Positions 124-55,094 of a stretch of DNA of 59,307 bases are shown piece by piece. How positions within the stretch are numbered: the first letter of the stretch is position 1; each line of letters starts with the position of its first letter. Under the pieces are notes generated by a model. It searched no databases. It was not told where the DNA came from and worked only from the letters and a program-made list of their open reading frames with translations. This DNA is from a virus (taxonomy: Duplodnaviria; Caudoviricetes), in the IMG/VR virus record IMGVR_UViG_3300017766_003746, positions 1-59,307 of that record. One strand, 5' to 3'. Position numbers and translations under genes: made by a program.

Positions 124-565
124 AACCATCCCGTGCCGCTGCTGCAATGGCAGCGGGCGCGAAGCCCTTCCCCCCGAATACGCCGACACCATTGCCCTGA
201 TGCGAAAATTTTCGCATGGCGCGACCACGGCCGACCTGCTGGCCATGCCGATTCAGGCCATGGAGACGCGCACCGAACCCAACGCGCTGGCCATGCGCCT
301 GAACCGCATGGAGCGGTGGGGGCTGGTGATTCGCCACGGGAAGCGCGGCAAGCTGATTGTGTGGGGCCTTGGCGCGGCACTGATGCCCAAGGCCAAGCCG
401 TGCGCGTGCTGCGGCCACCGGCCCGAGTGGCGGCACAGCGGTGGCGGCGTGTGGCGGCTGGTGCACAGCAGCGACGCATGCCCCAACCGCGTGGTCGTGG
501 CCGACGTGACGCCCGCCAAGGTGGCACGCCAGTGGAACACCAACAGCTTCAGGCGCATCCCATGA
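107..565 (+). CDS. Hypothetical protein with Cys motifs and a possible winged-HTH
   Basis: CRCCNG and CACCG motifs; LAMRLNRMERWGLV..RGK resembles a wHTH; coupled to neighbours by ATGA overlaps. Confidence 0.6.
   Translation: MNTDRPTIPCRCCNGSGREALPPEYADTIALMRKFSHGATTADLLAMPIQAMETRTEPNALAMRLNRMERWGLVIRHGKRGKLIVWGLGAALMPKAKPCACCGHRPEWRHSGGGVWRLVHSSDACPNRVVVADVTPAKVARQWNTNSFRRIP
201..216. repeat. Palindrome A copy 1, TGCGAAAATTTTCGCA (inside CDS)
   Basis: Exact match read from sequence. Confidence 0.95.
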
Positions 566-1563
566 CCCAGCCGCTGACCATTCACCGCGGCGACTGCCGC
601 AAGGTGCTGCCGACGCTACCAACCGCCAGCGTCGATTGCGTGGTGACCTCGCCACCCTACTGGAACCTCCGCGACTACGGCACCGACGACCAGATCGGCC
701 GGGAGCCGACCGTCGGCGAATTCGTGGAAACCATGGTGGCGGTGTTCCGCGAAGTGCGCCGGGTGATGACGCCCACGGGCACCTTGTGGCTGAACCTCGG
801 CGACAGCTACGCCGCACAGGCCGGTGGCAGCCAAGGCAAGACCAGCCAGCGGGCAGGCCGACGCCACACCCAGCGCATGGAGACGAAAGGCGGGCTTCCC
901 CGCAAGAACATGGTGGGCGTGCCGTGGCGCGTGGCCTTCGCCCTTCAGGATGACGGGTGGATCCTGCGGCAAGACATCATTTGGAACAAACCCAACCCCA
1001 TGCCCGAGAGCGTGCGCGACCGTTGCACGAAGGCCCACGAATACATTTTCCTCCTGACCGCAAGCCCCCGCTACTACTTCGACGCGGCAGCCATCGAAGA
1101 GCAGGTGACCGGCAACGCGCACGCACGGGCACCGATGACCCATCAAGGCGACGCCCTTCCCTATCTGCTGGACGGCATCGAAGCCGCCGATGGCAAGGCC
1201 CGAGGCGTGAACCCCAAGGCGGAAATCGGCGGATTCAAGACGCGCCAGAATGCCAGCTTTTCGGCGGCCGTGGTCGACCTGGTGGAAAACCGAAACAAGC
1301 GGAGCGTGTGGACGGTGCCGACAACGCCGTTTCCCGGGGCCCACTTCGCGACTTTCCCGCCCGACCTGATCAGGCCATGCGTGCGGGCCGGATGCCCGGC
1401 CGGTGGCGTGGTGCTTGACCCCTTCGGCGGGAGCGGCACCACGGGCATGGTGGCCCTCGAGGAAGGCCGCAGGGCGGTGCTGATCGAGAGCAACCCCGAG
1501 TTTGCCGACATGGCGGCCGGCCGCGCCAACCCCGCAGCGATTCACCCCACCCTTGGCATCTGA
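562..1563 (+). CDS. DNA methyltransferase, N4-cytosine/N6-adenine, beta class
   Basis: VTSPPY catalytic motif, IIWNKPNPMPES, HFATFP and VLDPFGGSGTT SAM-binding motif; start moved to ATG 562. Confidence 0.93.
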   Translation: MTQPLTIHRGDCRKVLPTLPTASVDCVVTSPPYWNLRDYGTDDQIGREPTVGEFVETMVAVFREVRRVMTPTGTLWLNLGDSYAAQAGGSQGKTSQRAGRRHTQRMETKGGLPRKNMVGVPWRVAFALQDDGWILRQDIIWNKPNPMPESVRDRCTKAHEYIFLLTASPRYYFDAAAIEEQVTGNAHARAPMTHQGDALPYLLDGIEAADGKARGVNPKAEIGGFKTRQNASFSAAVVDLVENRNKRSVWTVPTTPFPGAHFATFPPDLIRPCVRAGCPAGGVVLDPFGGSGTTGMVALEEGRRAVLIESNPEFADMAAGRANPAAIHPTLGI

Positions 1564-2021
1564 TGTTTCACGAACGCTTCGCCATCACCACCGAACTGCG
1601 GGAGTGGACCGCCCGGCGACTGGCAGCCGCCAAGCGTGCCGTGCAACGCGAAGCCGACGCCATGGCGCTCTTCCCCGAGCTGCGGCGCTTCCACACTGAG
1701 GAAGAGCGGATGACCCAACAGGACGGCAACTACCTGCGACTCGCCGCGGCGCTTCGCAAGGGCAAGGCCAGGTGCTGGCGCGACTGCCGCCGGATCCTGC
1801 GGGAGCTGCCAGCCGACATCCGCGCCCGGGTGCTGGCCAAGTGGGAAACCCGCTACATGCCGGGAAGCCCCGAAAACCTGCATGCCACCATCCTGATGGA
1901 AGCTGGCGAGCCGCACACCAGCCGCCTGCGGGCCGAAGCCATCGCCAGGCTGATGGCCGAGCACCAGCCCGGCAACGGCCGCAGGAAGCGCCGGAAAAGG
2001 CGCGGCAAGGCGAGGAAATGA
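1563..2021 (+). CDS. Hypothetical protein
   Basis: Coupled to the MTase stop (TGATG); phage-like codon usage. Confidence 0.7.
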   Translation: MFHERFAITTELREWTARRLAAAKRAVQREADAMALFPELRRFHTEEERMTQQDGNYLRLAAALRKGKARCWRDCRRILRELPADIRARVLAKWETRYMPGSPENLHATILMEAGEPHTSRLRAEAIARLMAEHQPGNGRRKRRKRRGKARK

Positions 2022-2079
2022 GCCATCGCCCACCCGTTTGCGCTTGGCGAGGCCCACGGCGCTGGGTAAAGGGTTGGCC

Positions 2080-3438
2080 GTGCAACTCGAAATCCGAATG
2101 GTGCCGGTGGCGTGCCTGAACCCAGCCCCCTACAACCCCCGCAAAAAGCTGCGCCGCGGCGACCCCGAATACGAAGACATCGCCAACAGCATCCGCGAAT
2201 TCGGGCTGGTGCAAAACCTGGTGTGGAATGAGCGCACCGGCCACCTGGTCGGCGGCCACCAGCGGTTGACGGTGGCCCGCAACGAATTCAACGCCCACGA
2301 AATGCCGTGCGTGGTGGTGCAACTCGACGACGCGGCCGAAAAGCGCCTGAACATGATGCTGAACCGCATCGGGCAAGGCCTTTGGGACATGGGCAAGCTT
2401 TCCGAGCTGGTGCAAGGCCTGAACTCCGACGCCGTGGACGTCTACGGGCTGGGATTCACCGCCGCCGAAATTGAAGAGCTGCTGGGCACCAAGCCCAAGG
2501 CCACGAAGCGCGACCCCGACGACGAAGTGCTGCCCCCGAGCAAGCCGAAGACGCGCCCGGGCGACCTCTTCCAATTCGTGAGTGCCGACGGCCACCCCAC
2601 GCACTGGCTGCTTTGCGGCGACAGCACCGACCCGCACGACGTTGACCGGCTGATGAACGGCAACCGCGCACGCATCCTTTTCACCGACCCGCCCTACGGC
2701 GTGGACTACGACAACAGCCAGCGGGGCGACGGCCGCAAGGCCAAGGGCAAGATCGCCAACGACGCGCTGACCACCACCACGCTGGTGGACTTCCTGACCG
2801 CGTGTTTCCGCAACGCCCATGCCCACACCATGGGCGAGTGCGCCGCCTACGTGTTCCTCGCCAGCAAGTGCCACATCGAATTCGAAACGGCGCTGCGGGC
2901 GGCCGGGTGGGAAGTGCGGCAGCAACTGGTTTGGGCGAAGCACCTCGCGCTTTCGCGGGCGGATTACCACTGGGCGCATGAGCCCGCGCTCTATGCCGCC
3001 AAGGCGGGCAGCACCACGCCGTGGTTTGGCGACCGATGCCAGACAACGCTTTTTGCCGATGACCGGCCGCCCTTCGCCACGATGAAAAAAGACGAGCTGG
3101 TGGCGCTGCTGGAATCGATGACCAGCGCGGGCACCGTGTGGGATGAGAAGCGCGACCCCTCGAGCCAATACATTCACCCGACGCAAAAGCCGGTTTCGCT
3201 GGCCCGGCGGGCGATGCGAAACAGCACCCTGCCCCGTGACAACGTGCTGGACCTTTTCGGCGGCAGCGGCAGCACCCTGGTGGCGTGCGAAATCGACGGC
3301 CGCAACGCCTTCCTGATGGAGAAAGACCCCGGCTTTTGCGACGCCATCGTGCAACGCTACTTCGAAACCTTCGACGAAGTGCTGGTGATGAAGAACGGCG
3401 AGGAACTGAACCCCCTGACCTTTTGCCCGAATGAGTGA
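2080..3438 (+). CDS. ParB-like N-terminal domain fused to a DNA adenine methyltransferase
   Basis: LNPAPYNPRK..SIREFGLVQNLVWN..LVGGHQRL (ParB/Srx domain); FTDPPY, HPTQKPV, VLDLFGGSGST; start uncertain (GTG 2080 or ATG 2098). Confidence 0.9.
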   Translation: MQLEIRMVPVACLNPAPYNPRKKLRRGDPEYEDIANSIREFGLVQNLVWNERTGHLVGGHQRLTVARNEFNAHEMPCVVVQLDDAAEKRLNMMLNRIGQGLWDMGKLSELVQGLNSDAVDVYGLGFTAAEIEELLGTKPKATKRDPDDEVLPPSKPKTRPGDLFQFVSADGHPTHWLLCGDSTDPHDVDRLMNGNRARILFTDPPYGVDYDNSQRGDGRKAKGKIANDALTTTTLVDFLTACFRNAHAHTMGECAAYVFLASKCHIEFETALRAAGWEVRQQLVWAKHLALSRADYHWAHEPALYAAKAGSTTPWFGDRCQTTLFADDRPPFATMKKDELVALLESMTSAGTVWDEKRDPSSQYIHPTQKPVSLARRAMRNSTLPRDNVLDLFGGSGSTLVACEIDGRNAFLMEKDPGFCDAIVQRYFETFDEVLVMKNGEELNPLTFCPNE

Positions 3439-3712
3439 TCAAGACGACCTGGTGGAACGGCTGGCCGAAGCCGCCGCAGCACGGCTGGCCGAGCACTGCG
3501 ACAGCGTCGTGGTGATTGTGACCTACGCCCGCCCCGCCGAAGGCCCCGAGGGACCGCGCACGGGCATTTACAAGGCCGGGCGCGGCAACTTCTACGCCCA
3601 ACAGGGAAGCACTGCCGAGTGGCTGCGAAACAGCCGTGAGCAAACCGACTACCCGACGCCGGATCCCGGCGACGACGACGACGGCGAGCAGTGGAAGGGG
3701 GCCGAAGCATGA
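3431..3712 (+). CDS. Hypothetical protein
   Basis: Overlaps both neighbours within the operon. Confidence 0.65.
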   Translation: MSDQDDLVERLAEAAAARLAEHCDSVVVIVTYARPAEGPEGPRTGIYKAGRGNFYAQQGSTAEWLRNSREQTDYPTPDPGDDDDGEQWKGAEA

Positions 3713-4200
3713 GCAAGGGACGCGGCCGGCCGAGCAAGCTCACGCCCGAGATTCAGGACAAGATTTGCAACCTGATCCGGGCCGGGCACTACTTCAACAC
3801 CGCGGCAGCCGCTGCGGGGATCCACGAAGCGACCTTTCACGAATGGAAGGCCAAGGGCGAAACCGCGAAAAGCGGGCCATTCCGCGAATTCTGGATGGCC
3901 GTCAAGGAAGCCGAGAGCCAAAGCGAACTGCTGCTGGTCGACAAGATTCTGAAGGAAGGCGGGCCGAAGGGTGCGCTTGAAATCCTGAAGCGCCGTTTCC
4001 CCGAGCGATGGGGCGACAGGCACCGCCTCGAGCACAGCACCCCCAACGGCCCGATTGGCGTCCACGGCACGGGCACCGCCGCCGGTTCACCGGCCGTCAC
4101 GGTGGTGATCGGCGACAAGGCCGACGTGTGGCAAAGCAATGGCTACACCGAAGCCGAGACGCTGACCGAAGACGAGCTGGCCGCCATGAACCCCGACTGA
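3709..4200 (+). CDS. terS: Terminase small subunit (putative)
   Basis: GRPSKLTPE..HTH-like N-terminus; lies upstream of TerL. Confidence 0.7.
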   Translation: MSKGRGRPSKLTPEIQDKICNLIRAGHYFNTAAAAAGIHEATFHEWKAKGETAKSGPFREFWMAVKEAESQSELLLVDKILKEGGPKGALEILKRRFPERWGDRHRLEHSTPNGPIGVHGTGTAAGSPAVTVVIGDKADVWQSNGYTEAETLTEDELAAMNPD

Positions 4201-4454
4201 TGGCCAAGACCCGCAAGAAACTGGCAGCCCGACCGCCCGCACTGCCGAAGATGATCGGCAGCGAATGGGCAAACCGGAAAGCGTGCGAGCGCAAGCGCGG
4301 CTTCGACCTGAAGGTGAAGGCCGAAGTCGTGGCGCTGGCCATCATGAACCACAGGAACCGCAGGAAGCGCCCGGCATGGCCGCTGCGGGCCTACCACTGC
4401 CCCGTGTGCGGCAAGTGGCACCTGACCCACAAAGAGCAGATCCCAAGGGAATGA
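4200..4454 (+). CDS. Small Zn-finger protein
   Basis: RAYHCPVCGKWHLT motif, common in small phage proteins. Confidence 0.7.
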   Translation: MAKTRKKLAARPPALPKMIGSEWANRKACERKRGFDLKVKAEVVALAIMNHRNRRKRPAWPLRAYHCPVCGKWHLTHKEQIPRE

Positions 4455-5851
4455 GCGTGGCCCCGAGACATTCCGACCGCGTGGAATACCGCCTGCAGCC
4501 GCAGCAGGCGAAGGCCTTCACCGTGCCCGCCAACGAAATCCTTTACGGCGGGGCGGCCGGTGGCGGCAAAAGCCACTTGATGCGGATCGACGCCATTTAC
4601 TGGTGCCAGCAGGTGCCAGGGCTTCAGGCCTACATCTTCCGGCGCAACTACGGCGACTTGCGGCTGAACCACATGGAAGGCCCCACCAGCTTTCCCGAGC
4701 TGCTGGCCCCACTGATCAGGGCCGGGAAGTGCGAGATTGTGGCCGAGGAAATCCGCTTCGACAACGGCAGCAAGATCCACCTTTGCCACCTTCAATACAC
4801 GAAGAGCCTGCAAAAATACCAAGGGGCGGAAATCCACTGGCTGGGGATCGATGAGCTGACCCACTTCGAGGAAAAGCAATACCGCTACCTGCGGGGCCGG
4901 GTGCGCCTCGGCGGCCTGAAGGTGCCCGACGCCCTGAAGCACCGGCTGCCGCGCATCGTGTGCGGCACCAACCCCGGCGGGATCGGCCACAACTGGGTGA
5001 AACGCTGCTTCATCAAGCTGGGGCCCATGCGCGTGGTGCAAATGCCGAAAAAGGAAGGGAACATGCGCCGCGTGTTCATCCCCGCCAGGCTGGAAGACAA
5101 CCCGGCGCTGATGGCCAACGACCCGGACTACGAAAGCCGCCTCGAGGCCTTGGGCGACCCCCTGCTTGTGCGTGCCATGCGGGAAGGCGACTGGGACGTG
5201 GTGGCCGGGGCGATGTTCGGCGAGGCATGGCGCAAGAGCCGCCACGTGTGCAAGCCCTTCCCCATTCCGGTGGACTGGAAGGTCTGGCGCGGGGCCGACG
5301 ACGGCTACGCGGCACCGGCGGCCTGCTACTGGCTGGCAGAGAACCCGAACACCGGCACGATTTACGTGGTCGACGAACTCTACAAAACCGGGATGCTGCC
5401 CCACGACTACGCGCAACGGGTGCTGGAAAAGGACGGCAACCTCGAGCGCGAAGAAAACGGCGAAGCGGTGCTGAACACCGAACGGCTTGACGGCCTGATG
5501 GACGCCGCGGCATTCGCCAACACCGGGCAGAGCGACACCCCACGCGGGCCGCAGATCGTGAAGGCCGGGGCCAAGTTTCGGCCGGTCGAGAAATGGCCGG
5601 GATCCCGGGTGCACCGCGTGCAAGACTTCCACCGCCGACTTGGCACCAACGAACGCGACCCCGACAAGGGCCCCGGCATTGTGTTCTTCGACCGCTGCCG
5701 CAACGCCATCGAAACCATTCCCACGCTGCCACGCGACCCCAACAACATCGAAGACGTGGACACCGACGGCGACGACCACGCCTTCGACGGGGTTACGTAT
5801 GGGCTACAGTGGAAGTCACAAAAGGTGACAAGAAAGCGCGTGAATTCCTGA
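4451..5851 (+). CDS. terL: Terminase large subunit
   Basis: YGGAAGGGKS Walker A, GIDELTHF Walker B, GTNPGG coupling motif, C-terminal DDHAFDG nuclease motif. Confidence 0.95.
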   Translation: MSVAPRHSDRVEYRLQPQQAKAFTVPANEILYGGAAGGGKSHLMRIDAIYWCQQVPGLQAYIFRRNYGDLRLNHMEGPTSFPELLAPLIRAGKCEIVAEEIRFDNGSKIHLCHLQYTKSLQKYQGAEIHWLGIDELTHFEEKQYRYLRGRVRLGGLKVPDALKHRLPRIVCGTNPGGIGHNWVKRCFIKLGPMRVVQMPKKEGNMRRVFIPARLEDNPALMANDPDYESRLEALGDPLLVRAMREGDWDVVAGAMFGEAWRKSRHVCKPFPIPVDWKVWRGADDGYAAPAACYWLAENPNTGTIYVVDELYKTGMLPHDYAQRVLEKDGNLEREENGEAVLNTERLDGLMDAAAFANTGQSDTPRGPQIVKAGAKFRPVEKWPGSRVHRVQDFHRRLGTNERDPDKGPGIVFFDRCRNAIETIPTLPRDPNNIEDVDTDGDDHAFDGVTYGLQWKSQKVTRKRVNS

Positions 5852-5894
5852 AAACGCGCTCGCCTCGTTTGATGGATTGCGCTACGCTTGGCGG

Positions 5895-6395
5895 ATGCGA
5901 CCAACCATCATTTCAGACACGAAGCAGGTTTTCAACGGCATGGCCTACTACCTTTGCGGGCAATACTTCCAGCGCGATGGGGTGCGGCTTCACCGCGTGG
6001 TGTGGGAAGCGGCCAATGGCAGGCCGGTGCCAGACGGCTACCACGTGCACCACAGAGACGAAGACCGCTCCAACAACAACCCGGAAAACCTTCAACTGCT
6101 GGAAGGTGCCGAGCACGTAAGTGCGCACGGCAAGGCCAAGACCACGGATGCAGAGCGGGCGGCACGGTCGCGAAACGCCAGGCGGTTTGCCACACCCGCA
6201 AACCGCCTGATTCCAAGAGAGAAGCGCTCGGCAGCTTCGAAAGCCGGGTGGAACGGCCGCGAACCGATCAAGACCACGTGCCAAGAATGCGGCAGCCCAT
6301 TCGATTGCTATCGGCCGACGGTGGCCAAGTTTTGCAGCGCCGCATGCAGCCAGCGGGATCTTCGGAAACGCCGCAAAGCCGACCTGAAGAGCTGA
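5895..6395 (+). CDS. HNH endonuclease with C-terminal Zn finger
   Basis: LHRVVWE..HVHHRDEDRSNNNPENLQL; CQECG..FCSAAC. Confidence 0.9.
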   Translation: MRPTIISDTKQVFNGMAYYLCGQYFQRDGVRLHRVVWEAANGRPVPDGYHVHHRDEDRSNNNPENLQLLEGAEHVSAHGKAKTTDAERAARSRNARRFATPANRLIPREKRSAASKAGWNGREPIKTTCQECGSPFDCYRPTVAKFCSAACSQRDLRKRRKADLKS

Positions 6396-6411
6396 TGCGA
6401 AAATTTTCGCA
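6396..6411. repeat. Palindrome A copy 2 (abuts the HNH stop codon)
   Basis: TGCGAAAATTTTCGCA. Confidence 0.95.
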
Positions 6412-6476
6412 TGGCGTGGAAAAGCGCCGGAAAAGGCGCATTTCTCTTGACTCATTCGGCGCTTTGAGTCCAGAAA
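6396..6476 (+). promoter_or_regulatory. Composite promoter: palindrome A, 12 bp, motif B (6424-6439), then TTGACT (6447-6452)
   Basis: Near-identical to the module at 42872-42930; the -10 element is weak. Confidence 0.65.
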
Positions 6477-6482
6477 CACCGC

Positions 6483-6600
6483 GTGAACCGCCGGTGAACT
6501 TGTGGCAAAAGGCTTTCCCCGCTTCGCGGAGGGGTAAAAACCTTAGCCAATCGCCATTCCCGCGAGTTGGACCCCTGGTCTTCATGAGCGGTTCACACCA
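6483..6600 (+). ncRNA. Candidate structured ncRNA or 5' leader (four-way junction)
   Basis: GTGAACCGC (6483-6491) pairs with GCGGTTCAC (6588-6596); three internal hairpins; no credible ORF here. Confidence 0.5.
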
Positions 6601-6613
6601 ACCACCAAGACCG

Positions 6614-6775
6614 ATGACAACCATACGACGATTGATTGCCCGCTTTTTTCCGAAGAAAGCGCCAGCCCCCAAAGGCCCGCAGCCGCCAACGCATCCGAAT
6701 TGTCGGTGCACGGTGCTGCCCGATTACTTGCGCCGCCACATGGAAGCCCAAGACCGGGGGGACTTCCGGGCATGA
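6614..6775 (+). CDS. 53-aa protein carrying a MuF-type HPNCRC motif
   Basis: ATG after a C/A-rich leader; PPTHPNCRCTV; ATGA overlap with the ASCH gene. Confidence 0.55.
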   Translation: MTTIRRLIARFFPKKAPAPKGPQPPTHPNCRCTVLPDYLRRHMEAQDRGDFRA

Positions 6776-7269
6776 GCGATGCGAAAATTTTCGCATTCCG
6801 CGACCAGCAGCCCGAGGCCTGCGAACTGCGGGTGCTGACCGTGCGCGACCCGTGGGCGACCATGATCGCGGCCGGCCGCAAGCAGTGGGAAACCCGCACG
6901 CGGAAAACCCAGTTTCGCGGGTGGGTGGCCATTCACGCCGGTGTGGCCATGACCCGGCCGCAGATCGAGCTTGCCAAGCACTTGGGCTTGGATCCCCGCG
7001 ACCTCGCCACGGGGCGCGTGGTGGCCATTGCCGAGCTGGTGGCGACCATGCGCACGGTGGACATGGACGCCGCGAACTTTGGCAAGGGGATCAGCGACGA
7101 AGAGCGCCTGCTTGGCGACTACACGCCCGGCCGGTGGGCGTGGAACCTCCGCAGCGTGCAAGCCTTCCGTGGGCCGAAGCTGAAGGGCAAGCTTGGGCTC
7201 TGGAAGCCGACCGAAACCCAGCGTGCGCAAATTTTCGCATGCTACCGCCGCACCTTTTCCCAACACTGA
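6772..7269 (+). CDS. ASCH (PUA-like) domain protein
   Basis: LTVRDPWATMIAAGRKQWETR..RGWVAIHAG..KGKLGLW. Confidence 0.88.
   Translation: MSDAKIFAFRDQQPEACELRVLTVRDPWATMIAAGRKQWETRTRKTQFRGWVAIHAGVAMTRPQIELAKHLGLDPRDLATGRVVAIAELVATMRTVDMDAANFGKGISDEERLLGDYTPGRWAWNLRSVQAFRGPKLKGKLGLWKPTETQRAQIFACYRRTFSQH
6780..6795. repeat. Palindrome A copy 3 (ASCH N-terminal codons)
   Basis: TGCGAAAATTTTCGCA. Confidence 0.95.
7224..7239 (+). repeat. Palindrome A copy 4, C variant (ASCH C-terminal codons)
   Basis: TGCGCAAATTTTCGCA. Confidence 0.93.
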
Positions 7270-7270
7270 A

Positions 7271-7606
7271 ATGCCGACACCAACCGAAACCATCGAACAC
7301 GCCGCCAAGCGTGCCCGCGACGCCGCCGACGACTTCACGCTGCTGCATGGAGTAAAACCCAACGCCCTGATGGCCGGGCAACGCTACGTGGCCGCCATCG
7401 TGCAAGCCACCCAAACGCTGGGGATGCTTGGCCAGGCGAAGACCATCAACCAGTTGCTGCCCGAGTGCCCGAAGCTGAAGCAGCGCATGATTGGCGGCAT
7501 GCCCATCATCATTTCCAACCGCGACGACGACCACCTTGCCGCCGTGCTGGTGGGTGACCTCGCCATGCTGGAAGCCAGACCCCAACCCCAACCCGCAAAA
7601 CGATGA
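7271..7606 (+). CDS. Hypothetical protein
   Basis: ORF within operon, ATG 7271. Confidence 0.65.
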   Translation: MPTPTETIEHAAKRARDAADDFTLLHGVKPNALMAGQRYVAAIVQATQTLGMLGQAKTINQLLPECPKLKQRMIGGMPIIISNRDDDHLAAVLVGDLAMLEARPQPQPAKR

Positions 7607-8529
7607 TCCGACGACACAACACCATCAGCCTTGCCGCCATGCTGGCGGCCGTGGCCGCACCCGACTTTGCCGCAGAGCTGGAAGCCTCGAGCAAGGCCGT
7701 CAACCTTCACGTGGTGAAGATTCCGCAGGGCCTTGCCGTGGCCACCTACCACAACGCCAGCAGCCAAGAGACGGTGCGCATTTTCGTGCGCGACGCCGGG
7801 GTGATCGCCCGCGACCTGCCAGGCAAAGGCCCCACGAAATTCAGACTGACCCGCGTCGAGCCCGCCACGCCGGGCTTTCTGGAATGGTATGTTGACGGCC
7901 GGATCTGGCCCGACATCCGCCGCGAATACTACCGGCCCGAGCCGTGGGAAGTGCTGGCGTGGGGATGGAGCCCCGAGGCGGTCGAAAGCATTGCCGCCGG
8001 TGCGCTGGTGCTGCGGGAAATCGGCAAGGCGAGCTGCCGCGGCTGCGGCAAGCCCCACTGGCAGCACGAACGCGACGACGAACGCAAGGTTTGCGTCGAC
8101 TGCGACGGCAAGGAAGCGCCGAAGCTGCGGCCGAAGCAAGGCCGGTGGAATGGCGAGCCGTGCGAGGCCCTGCGGGGCACCGTGATCGTGGGCCACGTGG
8201 CAAGCCCGACCTGGTGGTGCGCCGGAATGGAAGGCCAGCGCCGCAAGTGCGTGCGAGTCGCGGCCGGCGGGGAAGTGTTCTTCCTCGATGACGAAGACGG
8301 GCGCGGCACCCTGAAGGTTTACGAACGCGGGGGCGGCCCCGACAGCTACCACGCGAGCATCCCCGTCGATGACCCGGGCACTTTCGAGCTGACCGACGAC
8401 GGGCCGCTTGAACCCGTGGAAACCGTGGCCGCCAAGGTGCTGCCGTTCATCGCCCCGCCGCGGACAGGCCGAAACGAGCTTTGCCCGTGCGGATCCGGCC
8501 AGAAATTCAAAAAGTGCTGCGGCCGATGA
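7603..8529 (+). CDS. Hypothetical protein with C-terminal SEC-C metal-binding motif
   Basis: GRNELCPCGSGQKFKKCCG; internal CxxC pairs. Confidence 0.85.
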   Translation: MIRRHNTISLAAMLAAVAAPDFAAELEASSKAVNLHVVKIPQGLAVATYHNASSQETVRIFVRDAGVIARDLPGKGPTKFRLTRVEPATPGFLEWYVDGRIWPDIRREYYRPEPWEVLAWGWSPEAVESIAAGALVLREIGKASCRGCGKPHWQHERDDERKVCVDCDGKEAPKLRPKQGRWNGEPCEALRGTVIVGHVASPTWWCAGMEGQRRKCVRVAAGGEVFFLDDEDGRGTLKVYERGGGPDSYHASIPVDDPGTFELTDDGPLEPVETVAAKVLPFIAPPRTGRNELCPCGSGQKFKKCCGR

Positions 8530-9380: not shown

Positions 9381-9382
9381 CC

Positions 9383-10449: not shown

Positions 10450-10471
10450 CCCCCAACCCCACACCAACCCC

Positions 10472-11475: not shown

Positions 11476-11478
11476 CCG

Positions 11479-45846: not shown

Positions 45847-45856
45847 TGGGGGGAAG

Positions 45857-45887
45857 GTCGCCCGGGAAACCGGGCGCGGATTGAAAC
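45857..45887 (+). CRISPR. Solitary type I-C-like CRISPR repeat, unit 1
   Basis: GTCGCCCGGGAAACCGGGCGCGGATTGAAAC: GTCGC start, 7-bp hairpin, GGATTGAAAC end. Confidence 0.8.
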
Positions 45888-45919
45888 AAACCCTCTGAAT
45901 GGAGGCCGGTGCATAGCAA

Positions 45920-45935
45920 TGCGAAAATTTTCGCA
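45920..45935. repeat. Palindrome A copy 12
   Basis: TGCGAAAATTTTCGCA. Confidence 0.95.
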
Positions 45936-45945
45936 TGCCCGTTTG

Positions 45946-45984
45946 GGGCGGGGATTCTTCGGGATTCCCGCCCTTTTTCTTTTT
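45946..45984 (+). terminator. Intrinsic terminator with UUCG loop
   Basis: GGGCGGGGATTC-TTCG-GGATTCCCGCCC followed by TTTTTCTTTTT. Confidence 0.85.
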
Positions 45985-46036
45985 GTGCCGGAAATGGCAC
46001 TTTTTCACTTGTCAAGGTAAGTGTTCCCCCTACGCT
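45985..46036 (+). promoter_or_regulatory. Motif B (45985-46000) plus promoter TTGTCA-N16-TACGCT
   Basis: GTGCCGGAAATGGCAC ends 8 bp before the -35. Confidence 0.65.
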
Positions 46037-46044: not shown

Positions 46045-47589
46045 ATGCAACTCACCGATGAGCAAGTGAAGGTGCGGGACAGCGAAGGCCACCTGGTGGT
46101 CGTCACCGCAAGGGCAGGTAGCGGGAAAACCGCCACCATGGTGCAACGGATCCGCGCCGAAATTGAGCGTGGAACCAACCCGCGAATGATTGCGGCCATC
46201 ACCTACACGGTGACCGCGGCACGCGAACTTCAGCACCGGCTTGGCTGCGAGCTGGGGCACTGCGGCACGCTTCACGGCTACGTGATGCGATGCCTTCAGG
46301 TGGACCCCGCGACCATCGCCGACGAAGACGAAGTGGCCGAGCTGGCGAAGCAGGCCTGCGGGGCGCTGAACATTCGCGGGCTGACCAACAAAGGGCTGCT
46401 GCGGGCCATGGAAGACGTGGTCGAACACCCGGGCGACATCGGCGTGGCGCTGCGCTACGTGCGGGCCGAGCTGAAGGCCCGGGGCCGCACCACGTTTTCG
46501 CTGGTGCTGCGGGAGTTTCACGAATGCCTGATGCGAGGCGAGCACCGCCAGAAATTCGCGTTGCTGGTGGTCGATGAAGCGCAAGACACCGCGCCCATCG
46601 ATGCCGAGATTTTCGAGGCGATGGACGCCGACAAGCGGATTTTCATCGGCGACCCGCACCAAGCGATTTTCGGCTTTCGCGGGTGCACGGATCGGTTTTT
46701 CCGCAAGATGGCACGCAAGGCCAGCGACTACCTGCCACTTTCCACCACCTTCAGGTGCCGCCGGGCGATCTGCGACGCCGCCAACGCGCTGCTGCAAGGC
46801 GGGCCGGTCACGATGATGCGGAGCATTCACGCCGACGGCGACGGCTACATCGAGGCGCTGCGCTACCGCAACGAAGCCGAAGAGCTGAAGGGCATTCTCG
46901 CGTGGGCGAAGCAGTGCAACGGCACCCGCGCCGTGCTTTGCCGCTACAACGCCGACGTGGCCCGCGTGGGCGCGTGGCTGCTGGCCAACGGCATGAAGGT
47001 GCGCATGCGCCGTGCCGAGCCCGACAAGCTGCTGGTGGCCGCCCTGCGGCTGCTGGCGAGCAAGCGCGACGCCAACCTGCTGGCCGCCCTGCGGAGTGAA
47101 CTCGGCGAGCGTGCGGCAAAGCTGCCGCTGGTGGCCGATGCCGACGCCGTCGAGCTGCTGGCGCGAAGCGTGCGCGATGGCATGGGAAGCGTGCCGGCCG
47201 CGCTGAACATGCTCGGGGTGCCCGCCGAAGTGGCAGCCGATGCCGCGCCCGAGAGCGTGACCGTTTTCGAGGCGCTGGAAGCTTCCCTGCGGGGCGAGCG
47301 CCCGGGCGAAGCCGACGGCACCGAAGTGGTGGTGGGAACCGTGCACAGCGCGAAGGGGCGCGAATTCGACGACGTGCTGGTGGCGAGCTGCTACGCGCCA
47401 GGCAAGACCGCGGATCCCGACGAAGAGGCGCGGATTTTCTACGTGGCCATCACCCGGGCGAGAAACACCGCCACCGTGACCTTTGCCGACCGCCGGATTG
47501 ACCCGCGCACCATGGCGGAAACCGAAGGAACCCCCAGCCCATTCATCGCCGCGGCGAACATCGAAACCACCGAAGACAAGCACGCATGA
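46045..47589 (+). CDS. UvrD/Rep-family SF1 helicase
   Basis: ARAGSGKT, VDEAQD, GDPHQAIFGFRG, TVHSAKGREF, FYVAITRA. Confidence 0.92.
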   Translation: MQLTDEQVKVRDSEGHLVVVTARAGSGKTATMVQRIRAEIERGTNPRMIAAITYTVTAARELQHRLGCELGHCGTLHGYVMRCLQVDPATIADEDEVAELAKQACGALNIRGLTNKGLLRAMEDVVEHPGDIGVALRYVRAELKARGRTTFSLVLREFHECLMRGEHRQKFALLVVDEAQDTAPIDAEIFEAMDADKRIFIGDPHQAIFGFRGCTDRFFRKMARKASDYLPLSTTFRCRRAICDAANALLQGGPVTMMRSIHADGDGYIEALRYRNEAEELKGILAWAKQCNGTRAVLCRYNADVARVGAWLLANGMKVRMRRAEPDKLLVAALRLLASKRDANLLAALRSELGERAAKLPLVADADAVELLARSVRDGMGSVPAALNMLGVPAEVAADAAPESVTVFEALEASLRGERPGEADGTEVVVGTVHSAKGREFDDVLVASCYAPGKTADPDEEARIFYVAITRARNTATVTFADRRIDPRTMAETEGTPSPFIAAANIETTEDKHA

Positions 47590-48374
47590 GCGACCGCATT
47601 TTTCAAAACATGGATGGCATCAACGCCATTTTCATTCACAGCAGCGTGGACGATGCGGGCCTTGACCCGTTCGCATTTCGGGTGCTGATGCATCTGAGCC
47701 GACGCGCAAACCACAAGGGCATGGCATGGCCGGGCATTGAAAGCATGGTGGAGACTACCGGCATCAGTGAACGCCGGATCCGCGAAGCCCTTCGAGAATT
47801 GGAGCGCCGGAAAATGCTTGTGACCACCCAAGCGCCGGGGAAGGGCAACCGGAATTTTTATGAACTTACGGCCGCCAGCGAGTGGATTTTAGAACCGGCA
47901 CCACGTGCCGATTCGGAAGAATGCGGCACCACGTGCCGATTGGAACCGGCACCACGTGCCGATTCCTCTACTAGAGAAGGAAATCCAAGTGAAGGATATC
48001 CAGAAAAGGCGCAAGCGCCTGCTTCTTTGGGTAGAAATTCTAAAAAGTTTTTAGCGCCGGAAGCATGCGCCGCGATTCTGGACGAACTGGGGGACACCTT
48101 CAAAGCCCACCCGGTGTTTTGCCTGCGGCTGGGTGAATTCGTGGCCGAGCGATTCAAGACCCGCCGGGTGATGACCGAAGAGGCCGCCCACCGGTTGGCG
48201 GTGAAATTCGCGAAGCACGACCCCGAGACATGCGCCACGGCGCTGGAAACGAGTTTGGATCGCGGATGGACCGGGGTTTTCCCCGAAAGCGTGAAGGGTG
48301 ACCGCCGGGGATCGAGCGGGCCGCACCTGAGTGCGCAAGCAACCTTGGGAGATTGGGGGTTTGGCGAAGCATGA
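47586..48374 (+). CDS. Replication initiator (N-terminal wHTH)
   Basis: AWPGIESM..TGISERRI..LRELE; internal iterons; followed by a DnaC-like gene. Confidence 0.8.
   Translation: MSDRIFQNMDGINAIFIHSSVDDAGLDPFAFRVLMHLSRRANHKGMAWPGIESMVETTGISERRIREALRELERRKMLVTTQAPGKGNRNFYELTAASEWILEPAPRADSEECGTTCRLEPAPRADSSTREGNPSEGYPEKAQAPASLGRNSKKFLAPEACAAILDELGDTFKAHPVFCLRLGEFVAERFKTRRVMTEEAAHRLAVKFAKHDPETCATALETSLDRGWTGVFPESVKGDRRGSSGPHLSAQATLGDWGFGEA
47896..47964 (+). repeat. Three 18-bp iterons CGGCACCACGTGCCGATT (probable origin)
   Basis: Copies at 47896, 47924 and 47947, followed by an AT-richer tract to about 48055. Confidence 0.85.
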
Positions 48375-49054
48375 ACCTGACCGACCCCACCCGCTGCATG
48401 CTTTGCAGCAAGCCCCACCTGCAAACCGAAGAGCACCCGACATGCCCCGAGTGCGAGGCCTTGCCCGAGATTGACACCAGCGCCGACGAAGAGCGCCGGA
48501 ATCGCGAGCGTGCCGAAGCCAGGGAACGCCTTTGGCAAACGAAGGTGCCCCGGGAATACCGCAACACCGAACTGGCGAAGCTTCCGACCCGTGCGGCCGA
48601 GCTTTTCCCACGGGTTGGCAACTGGGATTTCGCGACCGGCAAAGGCCTGACCCTGATCGGGCCGACCGGCCACGGGAAAACCCGGCTGGCGGTGCGGGCG
48701 ATGAAAAGCGCCTTCGACCGCGGGGCCCGAGTGGAAATCCTGCGGTGCGCCGAAGTGCGCATGGAACTTTGGGAAAGCTTCGCGGCTGCCAGCAAGCTGG
48801 TGGCCCGTGCGAGCAAGCCCGACGTGCTGCTGCTGGATGACCTCGGGCAAGGTGCGAAGAGCGAACAAATCGACGAAGTGACCTTGGCCATCCTCGAGGC
48901 GCGAACCGCCGAAGGCCGCCCGACCCTGACAACCACGCAATTCAACGACACCCGACTGATCGAACGATTTTACAGGCCCGAAACCGGCGAAGCCATTGTG
49001 CGCCGCGTGGGCCAGCAATTCGCCACCATCCTCAACCTGACCCCAAAGCCATGA
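48371..49054 (+). CDS. DnaC/IstB-like AAA+ helicase loader
   Basis: GPTGHGKT, LLLDDLG, PTLTTTQ. Confidence 0.88.
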   Translation: MNLTDPTRCMLCSKPHLQTEEHPTCPECEALPEIDTSADEERRNRERAEARERLWQTKVPREYRNTELAKLPTRAAELFPRVGNWDFATGKGLTLIGPTGHGKTRLAVRAMKSAFDRGARVEILRCAEVRMELWESFAAASKLVARASKPDVLLLDDLGQGAKSEQIDEVTLAILEARTAEGRPTLTTTQFNDTRLIERFYRPETGEAIVRRVGQQFATILNLTPKP

Positions 49055-49419
49055 CACCAAACGCCCGTGCGAAAATTTTCGCATCCCTGATTCTTTCCGT
49101 GCCGCTGCCAGCTTCCGCGCTGGTGCTGATTGCCATCGGCCCGCCATTCCCTGAAGGGTTTTTCGTAGCGTGCGCGGCTTTCACCACCGTGCTGGCGCTG
49201 GCGCTTGCCGGTGCCCGCGACTTCGACGGGATCCGCCGCGACTTCCACGGCGGTGCGCCAGCCTACTGGGTGCCGTGCACGGTGTGGCTGCTGGCGTGCA
49301 TCTTTGCCGCTGCCGCCGGGTGGCTGCCGATGGCCGTCACGCTGGTGCGCTGGGTGGTTTTTTCGGCTGGGGCGCTGCATGCGCTTGCGGATTTCGGGTG
49401 CCGTGTCAAAAACCGCTGA
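49051..49419 (+). CDS. Membrane protein
   Basis: Three to four hydrophobic segments. Confidence 0.65.
   Translation: MTPNARAKIFASLILSVPLPASALVLIAIGPPFPEGFFVACAAFTTVLALALAGARDFDGIRRDFHGGAPAYWVPCTVWLLACIFAAAAGWLPMAVTLVRWVVFSAGALHALADFGCRVKNR
49068..49083. repeat. Palindrome A copy 13 (inside CDS)
   Basis: TGCGAAAATTTTCGCA. Confidence 0.95.
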
Positions 49420-50369: not shown

Positions 50370-50385
50370 TGCGCAAATTTTCGCA
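50370..50385 (+). repeat. Palindrome A copy 14, C variant (abuts a stop codon)
   Basis: TGCGCAAATTTTCGCA. Confidence 0.93.
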
Positions 50386-50396: not shown

Positions 50397-50882
50397 ATGG
50401 CCGGAAAAAACAATGGAACCGCGTTTGAACGCGACCTGCAGACGATCTTCGACGCCTACCTTTCCCAAGGCCGGGCAAAAATTCACAAGGTGGATCCGCC
50501 CACGAAGGTGCTCGGCAGGAAGGTGCTTTTCCTGCCCAACGACTGGCTGGACTTCGCGGGCACGTGGACCGAACGCGGGGGCCGTGCGCTGGTGATCGAG
50601 GCGAAGACCACCCAAGAACCGACGCTGCCCCTCGGCGGTGAACGCGGGCTGACAAAAACCCAGTGGAACAACGCCATGGACTGGCAGCGGGCCGGTGCCG
50701 TGGTGCTGCTGCTTTGGGAATTCCGGGGCGAAATCCGGGTGACCACGCCCGCCATGGCGATGGCTGCTTGCCGCGAAAATGAGCGCAAAAGCCTGCGGTG
50801 GTGCGACGCCCACAAACTGCCCGTCGGCCATGGGTGGGTGAGATTTGACCCACTGACATGGGCAGCACGCTTGACAGACTGA
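50397..50882 (+). CDS. RecU-like Holliday junction resolvase
   Basis: GTAFE..Y..A.IHK..P..DFAG..IEAKTT. Confidence 0.8.
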   Translation: MAGKNNGTAFERDLQTIFDAYLSQGRAKIHKVDPPTKVLGRKVLFLPNDWLDFAGTWTERGGRALVIEAKTTQEPTLPLGGERGLTKTQWNNAMDWQRAGAVVLLLWEFRGEIRVTTPAMAMAACRENERKSLRWCDAHKLPVGHGWVRFDPLTWAARLTD

Positions 50883-50905
50883 CCGAAACGGGCCACAAAA
50901 GGCGC

Positions 50906-51199
50906 ATGGACACTCCAACGACCCCCAAGGAACTGAGCGACACCCAGCTTGCACCGCTGGTTGCATGGGCGCATTCCAACCGCGGCGCGATTGGCCGGAT
51001 CGCTGAACGCATGGCCAAAAAGAGCGGCCAAGCCGTGAACCGCCACATGGTGGGCCGGTGGCTTGCCCAAGAGCCTGACAAGCGGATCCAGCCGAGCCAC
51101 GGCTACGCGCTACTCATGGCCGACGTGGTGGCCGAGCTGCAAGACGAAGACCGCCAGCTTGATGCCGAGCGCCGCCGCACGGAACCCGCGCACGCCTGA
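50906..51199 (+). CDS. Small HTH-like protein, candidate regulator
   Basis: GAIGRIAERM..VNRHMVGRWL..P resembles Cro/XRE folds; preceded by TTGACA (50871) and a motif-B variant. Confidence 0.5.
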   Translation: MDTPTTPKELSDTQLAPLVAWAHSNRGAIGRIAERMAKKSGQAVNRHMVGRWLAQEPDKRIQPSHGYALLMADVVAELQDEDRQLDAERRRTEPAHA

Positions 51200-51234: not shown

Positions 51235-52263
51235 ATGCAAGACCACCCGATTGCGGGACTTTTCCCGCTGATTCCCGATGCCGAGCTGCAAGAGCTGGCC
51301 GAATCCATCCAACGAAGCGGACAGCGCGACGACATCGTGCTTTTCGAAGGCAAGATCCTTGACGGCCGCAACCGCTTTCGAGCGTGCGGCATTGCCGGGG
51401 TGAAGCCGCGCACCCGGGTTTTCGACCCGAAGAAAGACGGGCCGAGCCCGCTCCGCTTCGTGCTGGACCTCAACCTTTCCCGCCGCCACCTGAGCACCAG
51501 CCAACGCGCCGCGATTGCGGCCGAAAGCCTGAAGATCATGGAAAGCATGGCGAAGGCCGCAGCGGGTGCCAGCGCCACGCCGACGAAGCCCGCCCAGCTG
51601 AAGGCCTACGACCCGAGCGAAGCCGCCGACGAAGAGGGCGAAGCCGTGGTGACCGGGCCGACGGTGCCCCAGGCTGAAGCCATCGTCGAAGCCGGGAACC
51701 CCGACGACGACGTGCTGCCGGAAGACCGGCCGGAAGAAACCAAGCCGACGGTGGCAGAAACCGCGGCATCCATGGGCGTTTCCAAGCGGAGCGTCGAGCA
51801 CGCCAAGGGCCTGACCCCCGAGCACCTCGAGGAAGTGAAGAGCGGCAAGAAAACGCTTCACGCCGCCAAGCAGGAAGAGGAAGCCGAAAAGCTGAAGGCA
51901 CAGCGCAAGGAAGCCATCAAGCGCGTGGCCAAGGTGTGCGGGAAGGAATTCGCCGACGCCATGGCCCGCAACACCATCCTGAAGACCGTGAAGGAACTGG
52001 CGGCATTCCTCGCGTTGGATGACGACCAGATGCGGGCCGTTCAACCGCTGGTTTCGACCGGCTGGAAGGTGAAGAAAGCCCTTGCCCACGCGCTGGACGC
52101 CATCACCGGCGACAGCACGATTTCCGACCTCCTGAACAAAGCCATCGCGGCCGGCGGCGATGAATTCACCGTGGTGGTGAATGGCTGGGAAGTGACCGCC
52201 ATCAACGTGGGAGCCAGCCACAACAGCGACGGCACCCCGGCGAAGAACCCCGCGAAAAAGTGA
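51235..52263 (+). CDS. ParB/Spo0J-like protein with HTH
   Basis: LAESIQ..G.RD.I..ILDGRNRFRAC..NL.RRHL..SQRA; VAETAASMGVSKRSVEHAK HTH. Confidence 0.85.
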   Translation: MQDHPIAGLFPLIPDAELQELAESIQRSGQRDDIVLFEGKILDGRNRFRACGIAGVKPRTRVFDPKKDGPSPLRFVLDLNLSRRHLSTSQRAAIAAESLKIMESMAKAAAGASATPTKPAQLKAYDPSEAADEEGEAVVTGPTVPQAEAIVEAGNPDDDVLPEDRPEETKPTVAETAASMGVSKRSVEHAKGLTPEHLEEVKSGKKTLHAAKQEEEAEKLKAQRKEAIKRVAKVCGKEFADAMARNTILKTVKELAAFLALDDDQMRAVQPLVSTGWKVKKALAHALDAITGDSTISDLLNKAIAAGGDEFTVVVNGWEVTAINVGASHNSDGTPAKNPAKK

Positions 52264-54347: not shown

Positions 54348-54581
54348 ATGACACCCCCCGAAATCATGCACACGCCAGACGACCACAAGGAAGACGGCAC
54401 CCCCGTTTTCGATTCCATCCAATGGGAACGCCCGATGGAACTGCAACACGCGCTGATGGCAGGCACCATGCCGGTGCCCTGCTGGATCCGCATCGGCCGC
54501 ACCTGCATGCGGATCACCACCGAAGACGTGCAAGCAGTGTGCCGCGGCATCCTGCTTTCCAGCCTGATGCGTGCCGAATGA
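54348..54581 (+). CDS. Hypothetical protein
   Basis: ORF within operon. Confidence 0.55.
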   Translation: MTPPEIMHTPDDHKEDGTPVFDSIQWERPMELQHALMAGTMPVPCWIRIGRTCMRITTEDVQAVCRGILLSSLMRAE

Positions 54582-54775
54582 CCGCTGAAGAGCCAGTGCC
54601 AGGCCCCCACAACGTGGAGATTCAAGACATCCCCGGCCACTGGGATTCCGTTTTCGTGGCCGACGACCTGGTGGAAGCCGCACGGGTGGCTTCCTACATC
54701 GTGAAGCGCGACTGGCGGGTGCGGCAAGACGAACGCCGCGTGCGCATCCTTGCAGCCGACGGCCGCGAATGGTAA
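54578..54775 (+). CDS. Hypothetical protein
   Basis: ATGA overlap. Confidence 0.55.
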   Translation: MTAEEPVPGPHNVEIQDIPGHWDSVFVADDLVEAARVASYIVKRDWRVRQDERRVRILAADGREW

Positions 54776-54784
54776 AGCGTGGGC

Positions 54785-55078
54785 ATGAACCACGACAGCG
54801 TGCCACTGGTGATCTTCGAAACTGGCGAAGAGGCCGTGAAACACGGGCCGGGCGGCGCATCGTGGGCCGACGACGAAGGCCACCTTTTCGTGATGATTCC
54901 GGGCACTGGGCCGCACCTTGACGCCATCCCCGTGACCCGCGACCAGCAACGGGCACAAACCGAAGCCCGCACGTGGCTTCTGACCGGCGACCGCATGAAG
55001 CCCACGCTTCACCCGAGCTTGCACGTGCCAGACCGGTGGCATGGATGGCTGCGCGACGGCCATCTGGTTTCCTGCTGA
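54785..55078 (+). CDS. DUF6527-like protein
   Basis: W.LTGD..KPTL.PSL..WHGWLRDG; family name recalled, not searched. Confidence 0.55.
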   Translation: MNHDSVPLVIFETGEEAVKHGPGGASWADDEGHLFVMIPGTGPHLDAIPVTRDQQRAQTEARTWLLTGDRMKPTLHPSLHVPDRWHGWLRDGHLVSC

Positions 55079-55094
55079 TGCGAAAATTTTCGCA
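55079..55094. repeat. Palindrome A copy 15 (abuts a stop codon)
   Basis: TGCGAAAATTTTCGCA. Confidence 0.95.

Follow-up and report, generated by a model that had tools for sequence, protein, structure and literature searches.

Dispersed invariant palindromes in an uncultivated tailed phage and a ParB-like protein as their candidate reader

What reads an almost invariant 16-bp palindrome that recurs 15 times along the genome of an uncultivated tailed phage, and what might that reading be for? The element, here termed P1 (TGCG[A/C]AAATTTTCGCA), lies in a whole IMG/VR virus record (IMGVR_UViG_3300017766_003746; 59,307 bp with 123-bp direct terminal repeats), which in its full length constitutes the window of this analysis. 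The original prediction regarded P1 as the site of a protein-binding system extending over the whole genome, and this view is well supported, at the level of sequence, by conservation of the sites at orthologous places in related phages and by their bias towards intergenic DNA. Our preferred reading, to which we would give slightly less than an even chance, is that P1 represents an operator or parS-like site on double-stranded DNA for a phage-encoded dimer, most likely the ParB-like protein gp51235, perhaps together with its small neighbour gp50858.

Copy number and conservation of P1

An exact pattern match located P1 at each of the 15 starts that had been predicted, ten of the copies being perfect dyads that match on both strands and five carrying C at position 5 (hereafter C5 variants) and matching the + strand only; the same counts had been claimed previously, as had the AT-rich character of the motif relative to its GC-rich surroundings (G+C is ~64% in the window and 62-68% across most of its length). 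Comparison with shuffled sequence, a check proposed alongside the original prediction, gave no P1 match in any of 100 dinucleotide-preserving shuffles (0 expected by chance), and allowing up to three mismatches added a single site, at 38620, so that no halo of degenerate copies surrounds the set. The claim that the A-to-C changes share one strand holds for all five asymmetric copies in the window but is weak, because the two-sided chance of such uniformity is 1 in 16 and the mirror form (T-to-G at position 12) is seen in one relative, G002.

Two relatives allow the sites to be followed over graded distances: G001 (59.5 kb, complete, ~89% identical to the window) and G002 (41.7 kb, ~75% identical), with a further genome, G003, matching a stretch of the window that part of G002 also matches. 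A P1 site is present at 15/15 orthologous places in G001, and in G002, which spans 13.6-55.1 kb of the window, six sites are in place, one has moved, two are missing (45920 and 49068) and two are extra, the G002 stretch opposite 24638 having failed to align; conservation in related phages, likewise proposed as a check, is thus borne out. Positions 2-4, 6-11 and 13-15 are invariant in all 39 sites of the window, G001 and G002, including the spacer AAATTT, which is constant in 39/39, and variation is confined to positions 1, 5, 12 and 16. The window differs from G001 at 4 of 240 motif bases as against 319 of 1800 flanking bases, and from G002 at 8 of 96 as against 224 of 720, with the flanks around P1 sites diverging by 18-31%.

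Individual sites follow the same pattern. At 49068 the G002 gene retains the RAKI peptide through different codons and has lost the motif, which indicates that, where the site exists, it is the DNA and not the peptide that is selected. The 36146 site is found ~70 bp further downstream in the same gene of G002 (around G002 position 21668), and on this comparison it has changed position inside a single gene, the two places encoding similar peptide stretches. In that gene (36137-36637, following 35235-36137) the motif is written as codons C-A/E-N-F-R near the start in the window and G001, and where G002 has the moved copy the window encodes C-E-S-F-R from a degenerate version of the motif. Among the 40 listed of 667 differences between the window and contigs from four DNA runs, about ten fall within 36050-36220 and none inside the motif at 36146-36161. 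Judged from these alignments, P1 sites are under strong selection as DNA and are among the clearest such cases that a scan can show; the earlier contention that selection acts on the DNA rather than on the peptide is upheld by the retention of sites whilst their flanks diverge, by the nine intergenic copies described below and by the RAKI case.

The exact 16-mer occurs in bacterial genomes as single scattered matches in unrelated bacteria, and among the at least 120 loci listed no genome holds more than one exact copy, for which reason P1 was rejected as a host repeat. Across 2.9 million viral contigs, a set from which the window's own record is possibly absent, the exact 16-mer was found in four besides the window record, three of these four being relatives. 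Literature searches that left subscription journals and supplementary files outside their scope returned no paper when the motif core was used as a text string, and no description of this motif or phage group when phage ParB was combined with dispersed palindromes.

Placement at gene borders and the companion repeat P2

Nine of the 15 copies are fully intergenic in a genome of which 6.0% is noncoding (binomial P=3.7e-8) and in which all ~75 predicted genes (simple codon-bias gene caller) lie on the + strand. As had been noted previously, four copies abut a real TGA stop: the perfect copy at 6396-6411, which follows the TGA of an HNH endonuclease gene and in G001 stands directly after the gene for the large terminase subunit (TerL); the C5 variant at 13608-13623 (+ strand), which takes up the greater part of the 27 bp that separate the portal gene from the MuF-fusion gene; the C5 variant at 50370-50385 (+ strand), upstream of the run of genes for a resolvase, gp50858 and gp51235; and the perfect copy at 55079-55094. 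The perfect copy at 42872-42887 begins 4 bp past a stop. Terminator-like hairpins adjoin three further copies, lying just before the perfect copy at 20742-20757 (itself followed after 8 bp by a TTGACG box that lies upstream of gene 20894-21910, and identical in G001 and G002), just after the C5 variant at 27975-27990 (+ strand; its last three bases start the stem of a strong hairpin at 27988-28016) and just after the perfect copy at 45920-45935 (hairpin at 45945-45974). The perfect copy at 24638-24653, in a 168-bp gap (24578-24745), is counted as intergenic because the 70-codon open reading frame (ORF) in which it lies is broken by a stop in G001.

With gene calls checked against relatives, and with 24638 so assigned, six copies lie in coding sequences rather than the seven originally claimed; the accompanying statement that the coding copies use all three frames stands. 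Three are within the first 11 codons of a gene, namely the perfect copy at 6780-6795 (codons 3-8 of gene 6772-7269; AKIFA), the C5 variant at 36146-36161 (+ strand; codons 4-8 of a gene whose probable start is ATG 36137; CANFR) and the perfect copy at 49068-49083 (codons 6-11 of gene 49051-49419; AKIFA). The C5 variant at 7224-7239 (+ strand; AQIFA) falls within the last 15 codons of gene 6772-7269. Two perfect copies are deep within genes, at 201-216 (in coding sequence 107-565, read as RKFSH and kept in G001) and at 16322-16337 (in the gene for the 1533-residue MuF-fusion protein, read as AKIFA and kept in G001 and G002).

At 6396, 42872 and 55079, P1 opens a repeated cassette in which it is followed, after 12 bp, by a second inverted repeat, P2 (GYGCC-N6-GGCRC), and, after a further ~7-9 bp, by TTGAC (TTGACA in the cassette at 55079). 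P2 lies at 6424-6439 in the first of these, with other copies at 1988-2003, 18625-18640, 42900-42915, 45985-46000 and 55107-55122; four P2 copies are ~7-9 bp upstream of TTGAC-like boxes. The arms of P2 are kept between the window and G001 and its 6-nt centre is variable, that of the copy at 45985 being reverse-complemented in G001 (GGAAAT vs ATTTCC). Single P2-like copies with GCGCC arms also occur in two more distant relatives, L233 and G005. Position 5243 of G002 holds a full P1-P2-TTGAC cassette where the window (18614-18716) has P2 only, and a terminator stands between P1 and P2 both at 45920 and at G002 position 28510. P1 thus sits where transcription units meet, and its spacing from promoter elements is variable. 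P2 is a natural candidate site for whichever of gp51235 and gp50858 does not read P1.

An idea formed by eye, that P1 is itself an extended -10 promoter (TGnGAAAAT), was rejected: the key A is lost in the C5 variants and in the all-C form of L233, and a sigma-70 pattern scan turned up no consensus at any site. In contigs of near-identical strains, strain-variable spots flank the cassettes at 45920 and 55079 with the motif itself retained; in two metagenome runs 53 bp are missing within 45850-45907, just upstream of P1 45920, and in one run 55186-55404, just after the 55079 cassette, is replaced.

Candidate readers and lineage-specific palindromes

Two adjacent genes, both on the + strand, are the best candidates for the reader of P1. 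The leading one, gp51235 (51235-52263; 342 residues), comprises a ParB N-domain, an acidic disordered linker, a helix-turn-helix (HTH) and a C-terminal helical and beta-hairpin domain. A search of PHROG places it with the ParB-like partition family (1e-11), and a profile of its family aligns with Thermus Spo0J (1VZ0) in both the N-domain (Spo0J residues 43-124) and the HTH (profile 144-189 to residues 135-180) with an E-value of 2.3e-6, the HTH helices lying at 173-202 in the structural model of gp51235. Across 22 homologues the GxxRxxA patch, G44-R-N-R-F-R-A50, shows little or no variation, and gp51235 thus has both the N-terminal arginine patch and the central HTH, collinear with that of Spo0J, by which ParB/Spo0J proteins are recognised. 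All seven Foldseek matches at E<=0.001, and most of those ranked next, are Spo0J, ParB-CTP, Noc and KorB structures, KorB appearing weakly at ranks 23 and 30. Pfam gave no match to the single gp51235 sequence, and matches in cultured phages (6 records) are to the N-domain only, at 27-28% coverage. A homodimer model of residues 168-330 scored 0.46 (best of three controls, 0.00) with a symmetric interface at 290-325, at least 97% of contacts agreeing between runs and a partner pLDDT of at least 75; the same mark is reached by 20 of 30 proteins solved as same-chain pairs and by 1 of 23 solved single, counts that are approximate given the custom alignment used here. The modelling lends support to a predicted C-terminal pairing of gp51235, short of showing it.

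The second candidate, gp50858 (50858-51199; 113 residues), is a small, probable HTH protein (..AVNRHMVGRWL..) that may read either P1 or P2. It is helical (model pLDDT 82) with a conserved segment ..G-x-I-x-x-L...S-G-E-x-V-x-R-H-M-V-x-R-W-L.., and lies directly upstream of the ParB-like gene in nine of ten lineages. The original prediction had named gp51235 and, as gp50906, the gp50858 ORF with a later start, and these two have proved its best candidates, gp51235 being ParB/Spo0J-like with an HTH. A third protein that it named, the DnaA-C-like HTH protein gp11642, has no BLASTP match in G005, G006 or G007, which keep dispersed palindromes, and was discarded as a reader.

Distant relatives, identified from gp51235 homologues and from homologues of the adjacent helicase, share a common gene order and 30-60% protein identity with the window; the block conserved across lineages encodes a Zn-ribbon protein, the resolvase, gp50858, gp51235 and the helicase, with homologues of the Zn-ribbon protein and of gp50858 both undetected in G007. 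Each lineage has a palindrome of its own: TGCGCAAATTTGCGCA in L233, a marine contig (7 copies in 21 kb); T[A/G]CGCAAAATTGCG[C/T]A in G005 (6 in 58 kb); GGGGCAAATTTGCCCC in G007 (8 in 63 kb); AGCGCCCGCGGGCGCT in L318 (3 in 21.5 kb); AGCGCCAGCTGGCGC in L317 (2 copies); ACCGCAATTGCGGT in G006 (2 in 26 kb); and single copies of ACCGCAAATTTGCGGT in L234, GCGTCAGTACTGACGC in L243 and CCTCGCCACGTGGCGAGG in L319. All ten lineages with the ParB-like gene have a perfect or near-perfect palindrome of 12-18 bp inside or within ~1 kb of the gp50858-gp51235 pair, perfect 16-bp palindromes being expected by chance at ~0.015 per kb (1000 x 4^-8). In the window clade the nearest is the copy at 50370, ~850 bp upstream of the ParB-like gene and ahead of the resolvase, gp50858 and gp51235 genes; elsewhere the palindrome is directly upstream of the ParB-like gene (L233, L318), directly downstream of it (G006, G007), inside its linker (L317, L319, L243) or upstream of the small HTH gene (L234). 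No dispersed palindrome was found in L324-L327, four relatives recovered with the helicase marker that have no ParB-like gene within 10 kb on either side.

Placement also recurs between lineages. Five of the seven copies in L233 occupy spacers of ~55 bp separating a stop codon from the start that follows, one of the five lying just downstream of a TTGACA-N17-CACAAT pair. The slot right after TerL is used in G001 and G005 (and, in the window, after the inserted HNH gene), that upstream of the 42964 homologue in the window and G005, and that between the SbcC-like and UvrD-like genes in the window and G007. The class of palindrome changes by lineage together with the DNA-reading segments of both gp51235 and gp50858. 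Other repeats occur in these relatives. G007 (IMG/VR, 62,992 bp) has a second 16-bp palindrome, TGCGCACGCGTGCGCA, in four copies, which near 14210-14260 lies (at least once) at a distance of ~22 bp from the main palindrome, the two being separated by a shared stretch ACACTGTTGG, a two-palindrome cassette that parallels P1-P2 of the window. Direct repeats, probably origin iterons or another repeat system, are seen as four copies of GCAGCATACCTAG in L319 (13393-13445), three copies of GTAGTCAGAAGA in both L316 (5753-5835) and L317 (15446-15530) and ~11 copies of GCGCGGACTTGAGC in L323.

Within our preferred reading, a dimeric phage protein, most likely gp51235, would read P1 as duplex DNA, and gp50858, its conserved upstream neighbour, may act together with it. 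Protein bound at the borders of transcription units would then control transcription across a genome expressed in one direction, either as a block or insulator against read-through or by the loading of a sliding clamp able to reach promoters.

Every palindrome can be folded, the arrangement of all genes on one strand means that each copy is transcribed in one sense, and three copies adjoin terminator-like hairpins; a role for P1 as a hairpin of RNA or single-stranded DNA (a processing site, stability element or weak terminator) is nevertheless very improbable, and was set aside on the pairing counts. At positions 5/12 the 39 sites have A/T in 24 cases, C/T in 11 and T/T, A/G, C/A and C/G in one each, so that 14 of 39 would be unpaired there in a hairpin and one double change alone would be compensatory; such independent variation argues against a hairpin. 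What is conserved is sequence and not pairing alone, the possible stems in G005 and G006 extend to only ~4 bp, no T-run follows the motif, and the motif itself is absent from the output of the terminator scan, P1 having neither the compensatory stem nor the U-run of an intrinsic terminator or RNA hairpin. On sequence grounds the pattern is characteristic of a dimeric, symmetric protein that reads duplex DNA through two half-sites, TGCG[A/C]AAA. That P1 might instead be a selfish or neutral short repeat, functionless and spread by recombination, could be argued from the gain or loss of the cassette between G002 5243 and window 18614-18716, but is scarcely credible for a motif conserved far above its flanks, retained within genes in three frames, intergenic in nine cases and paralleled by similar systems in lineages ~30-60% identical in protein. 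A duplex site read by a host transcription factor (CRP-S-like, Rex, FNR or similar), tying phage expression to host physiology, is less easily dismissed and yet improbable. The geometry TGCGA-N6-TCGCA, present in ten of the 15 copies, presumably resembles that of CRP-S sites, and some copies lie upstream of TTGAC boxes. The AAATTT spacer, however, is invariant, unlike the free N6 of CRP-type sites, the copies are nearly identical rather than degenerate, the distance to promoter boxes is not fixed and can include a terminator, differences in the motif between related phages go together with differences in phage DNA-binding proteins, and bacterial genomes show single exact 16-mers only, among the loci listed. 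The coupling to host CRP, FNR or Rex that was first suggested accordingly finds no support in the invariant spacer, the lineage-specific motif or the bacterial matches.

More serious is the case for gp50858 itself as the reader, in which a Cro/KorA-like dimer would act at P1 as a genome-wide repressor or a roadblock of the stoperator type and the ParB-like protein would read P2 or nothing specific; we consider this unlikely, but not to the same degree. The half-site TGCG[A/C]AA is nearly common to the window clade, L233 and G005, and all three have the same gp50858 helix, VNRHMVGRWL, despite an overall identity of only 38-41% between the proteins, whereas the recognition helices of the ParB-like proteins differ there (SKRSVEHAK, SRRSLVTAT and SLRTMNAAE); as a sequence pattern this fits gp50858 better. 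Similarly, IARHTVSRWL goes with CGCC-N4-GGCG arms in L317, L318 and L319, and R-Q-M-V with ACCGCAA arms in G006 and L234. The position of gp50858 immediately ahead of the ParB-like gene is a further point in its favour, as are matches of four of nine members to the Pfam family HTH_Tnp_Tc3_2 (best E 1.2e-4), although all are below curated cut-offs and Foldseek gave no significant match, the best (E above 2, the top one 2.1) being to Xre-, POU-, HipB- and Aca1-type HTH domains. Against gp50858 stand G007, which has eight dispersed sites and a ParB-like gene without a detectable gp50858 homologue, and a second DNA-facing segment of gp51235, G-K-K-[TS], which likewise tracks motif class.

The helix comparison in the window clade, L233 and G005 weighs against our preferred reading, as do several other points. 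Because both genes are adjacent and co-inherited, covariation over ten lineages cannot separate them, and the lineages were themselves found through the very candidate genes or their neighbour. L234, L243 and L319 have both genes with a single site in 14-21 kb, and the grid is therefore not obligatory. A sigma-70 pattern scan found no consensus promoter beside any P1 copy, the TTGAC boxes having been identified by eye. No integrase, CI-type repressor or ParA was seen among the ~60 of ~75 products covered by the Pfam and PHROGs scans, ~15 small or structural ORFs lying outside them. A host factor with a degenerate regulon may yet be responsible, and the identity of the binder, its use of cytidine triphosphate (CTP) and its effect on transcription are matters that we infer. 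The evidence on gp51235 as against gp50858 is split; in favour of gp51235, three lineages have the palindrome within the ParB-like gene itself, and sites deep within genes and at variable promoter distances fit a loader of the ParB/KorB type better than a classical operator.

Genome context and parallels in other replicons

Beyond the genes already named, the window encodes (by Pfam and PHROGs) two DNA methyltransferases, small and large terminase subunits, portal, the MuF-fusion head protein, tape measure and tail proteins, a single-stranded DNA-binding protein, an SbcC-like ATPase, a UvrD-like helicase, an O-like replication initiator, a DnaC-like loader, the Holliday-junction resolvase and a ResIII helicase; no phage RNA polymerase or sigma factor was found among the products scanned. 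The methyltransferases (N6/N4; 562-1563 and 2080-3438) include one, the second, with a fused ParB_N domain, so that the phage has two ParB_N-domain proteins with different partner domains, the other being gp51235. The HNH gene (Pfam HNH_3; 5895-6395), between TerL and the P1 copy at 6396, is missing from G001 and looks like the recent insertion or loss of a homing-type gene. The stretch 31968-35230, with two large tail-end ORFs, has a lower G+C (0.57 vs ~0.64) and is ~65% identical to G001 and G002, as against 75-90% for the remaining genome; an exchange of a host-recognition module is the probable explanation. Inside the replication initiator gene (47586-48374), at 47897-47964, stand three direct repeats of GGCACCACGTGCCGATT with the usual look of origin iterons, and 47591-48038 is swapped for other sequence in public contigs of near-identical strains. 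Close cultured relatives were not found: megablast of positions 1-20000 gave one 123-bp methylase match, and TerL is less than 46% identical to that of any cultured phage. Near-identical DNA is nonetheless present in freshwater, wastewater and drinking-water metagenomes from 15 studies.

In its workings, the P1 system would, by analogy, most resemble KorB/KorA of plasmid RK2. RK2 carries 12 OB sites, and its KorB/OB and KorA/OA systems similarly pair a ParB-family HTH protein with a small HTH partner and have identical short palindromes scattered over a replicon of ~60 kb at variable promoter distances. The operator grid and a ParB-family protein are both present in the window, with the HTH fold of the partner gp50858 weakly supported. 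KorB is described as a CTP-dependent sliding clamp that silences over long range and is locked at promoters by its small HTH partner (PMC11790492). The systems differ in that the OB core, TTTAGCGGCTAAA as printed there (PMC11790492), is unrelated to P1, no IncC/ParA partner is among the scanned products, and the replicon is a tailed phage without sign of plasmid maintenance.

ParB-parS and Noc with its binding sites (NBS) offer a related parallel, in that palindromes of 14-16 bp are read by the HTH of a ParB-fold protein and the alignment of gp51235 with Spo0J covers both domains. The parS site is found within or beside parB, a position matched by the palindromes inside the ParB-like gene of L243, L317 and L319. 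P1, in contrast, has 15 sites spread evenly over 59 kb and not clustered near an origin, its sequence is one that we take to be unrelated to the parS consensus, and ParA is lacking among the scanned products; a ParABS partition locus was rejected on the absence of any ParA-type family there. Stoperators are asymmetric, oriented with transcription and bound by the monomeric immunity repressor of a temperate phage, unlike P1, which is a dyad (perfect in 10/15 copies, with the mirror variant in G002) in a genome with no immunity repressor or integrase among the products scanned; P1 was therefore rejected as a Cluster A stoperator, the sites being symmetric and no repressor having been found. As described for L5 and Bxb1, stoperators are dozens of dispersed repressor sites, often in short intergenic gaps, that stop transcription elongation (PMC9283540, PMC4351075). 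Phage ParB proteins associated with 5mYOX are described as having no DNA-binding domain (bioRxiv 10.1101/2025.08.14.668559); gp51235 has a DNA-binding HTH and no dioxygenase was seen in the window, so this identity was likewise rejected.

In appearance, the closest described counterpart of the P1 grid is the set of 17-bp repeats of Cluster O mycobacteriophages such as Corndog, in which TGTTCGG-N3-CCGAACA occurs in more than 30 copies, about a third in coding regions and many near gene starts (PMC4351075). A dimeric binder was predicted by the authors, who left the function unexplained and, at least in the sections that treat the repeats, drew no link to the ParB-like domain protein that these phages, which are not obviously temperate, encode (PMC4351075). 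Compared with this class by description, P1 (15 copies, six in coding sequences) fits as a dispersed, invariant dyad repeat, partly genic and not tied to promoters. The phages are unrelated (an actinobacterial host and a prolate head in Cluster O), as are the motifs, and both strands carry genes in Cluster O. In Corndog gp90 a ParB_N domain precedes a stretch that looks like an HTH (HTH alignment not significant, E 0.1), and the match of gp90 to the gp51235 profile was not significant.

Returning to gp51235 as the favoured reader, a more specific proposal, which we regard as possible and rather doubtful, is that a KorA/KorB-like module (a small HTH protein and a ParB-fold clamp) is carried by widespread uncultivated siphovirus-like phages of freshwater, wastewater and marine habitats, that a single parS-like site has been multiplied in several lineages into a grid of up to 15 per 59 kb, and that the ParB-like protein loads at every operon border and, during infection, coats or gates the entire phage chromosome.

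Dispersed invariant dyad repeats have been described in phages before and, stoperators apart, are unexplained. What the present case adds are relatives at graded distances that point to selection on the sites as DNA, turnover of sites within one intergenic or genic slot, motifs specific to lineages, and a pair of neighbouring phage genes that vary with the motif, one clearly homologous to ParB/Spo0J. If gp51235 reads P1, the ParB-CTP clamps lately recognised as transcription regulators (KorB, VirB, BisD) would be extended to tailed phages without a partition function, and the grid would show how one parS-like site can grow to cover a whole genome. ParB loading across such a grid, if true, would amount to a phage-borne, partition-independent use of the clamp for global control or genome protection, and the 17-bp repeats of Cluster O mycobacteriophages could be accounted for along the same lines.

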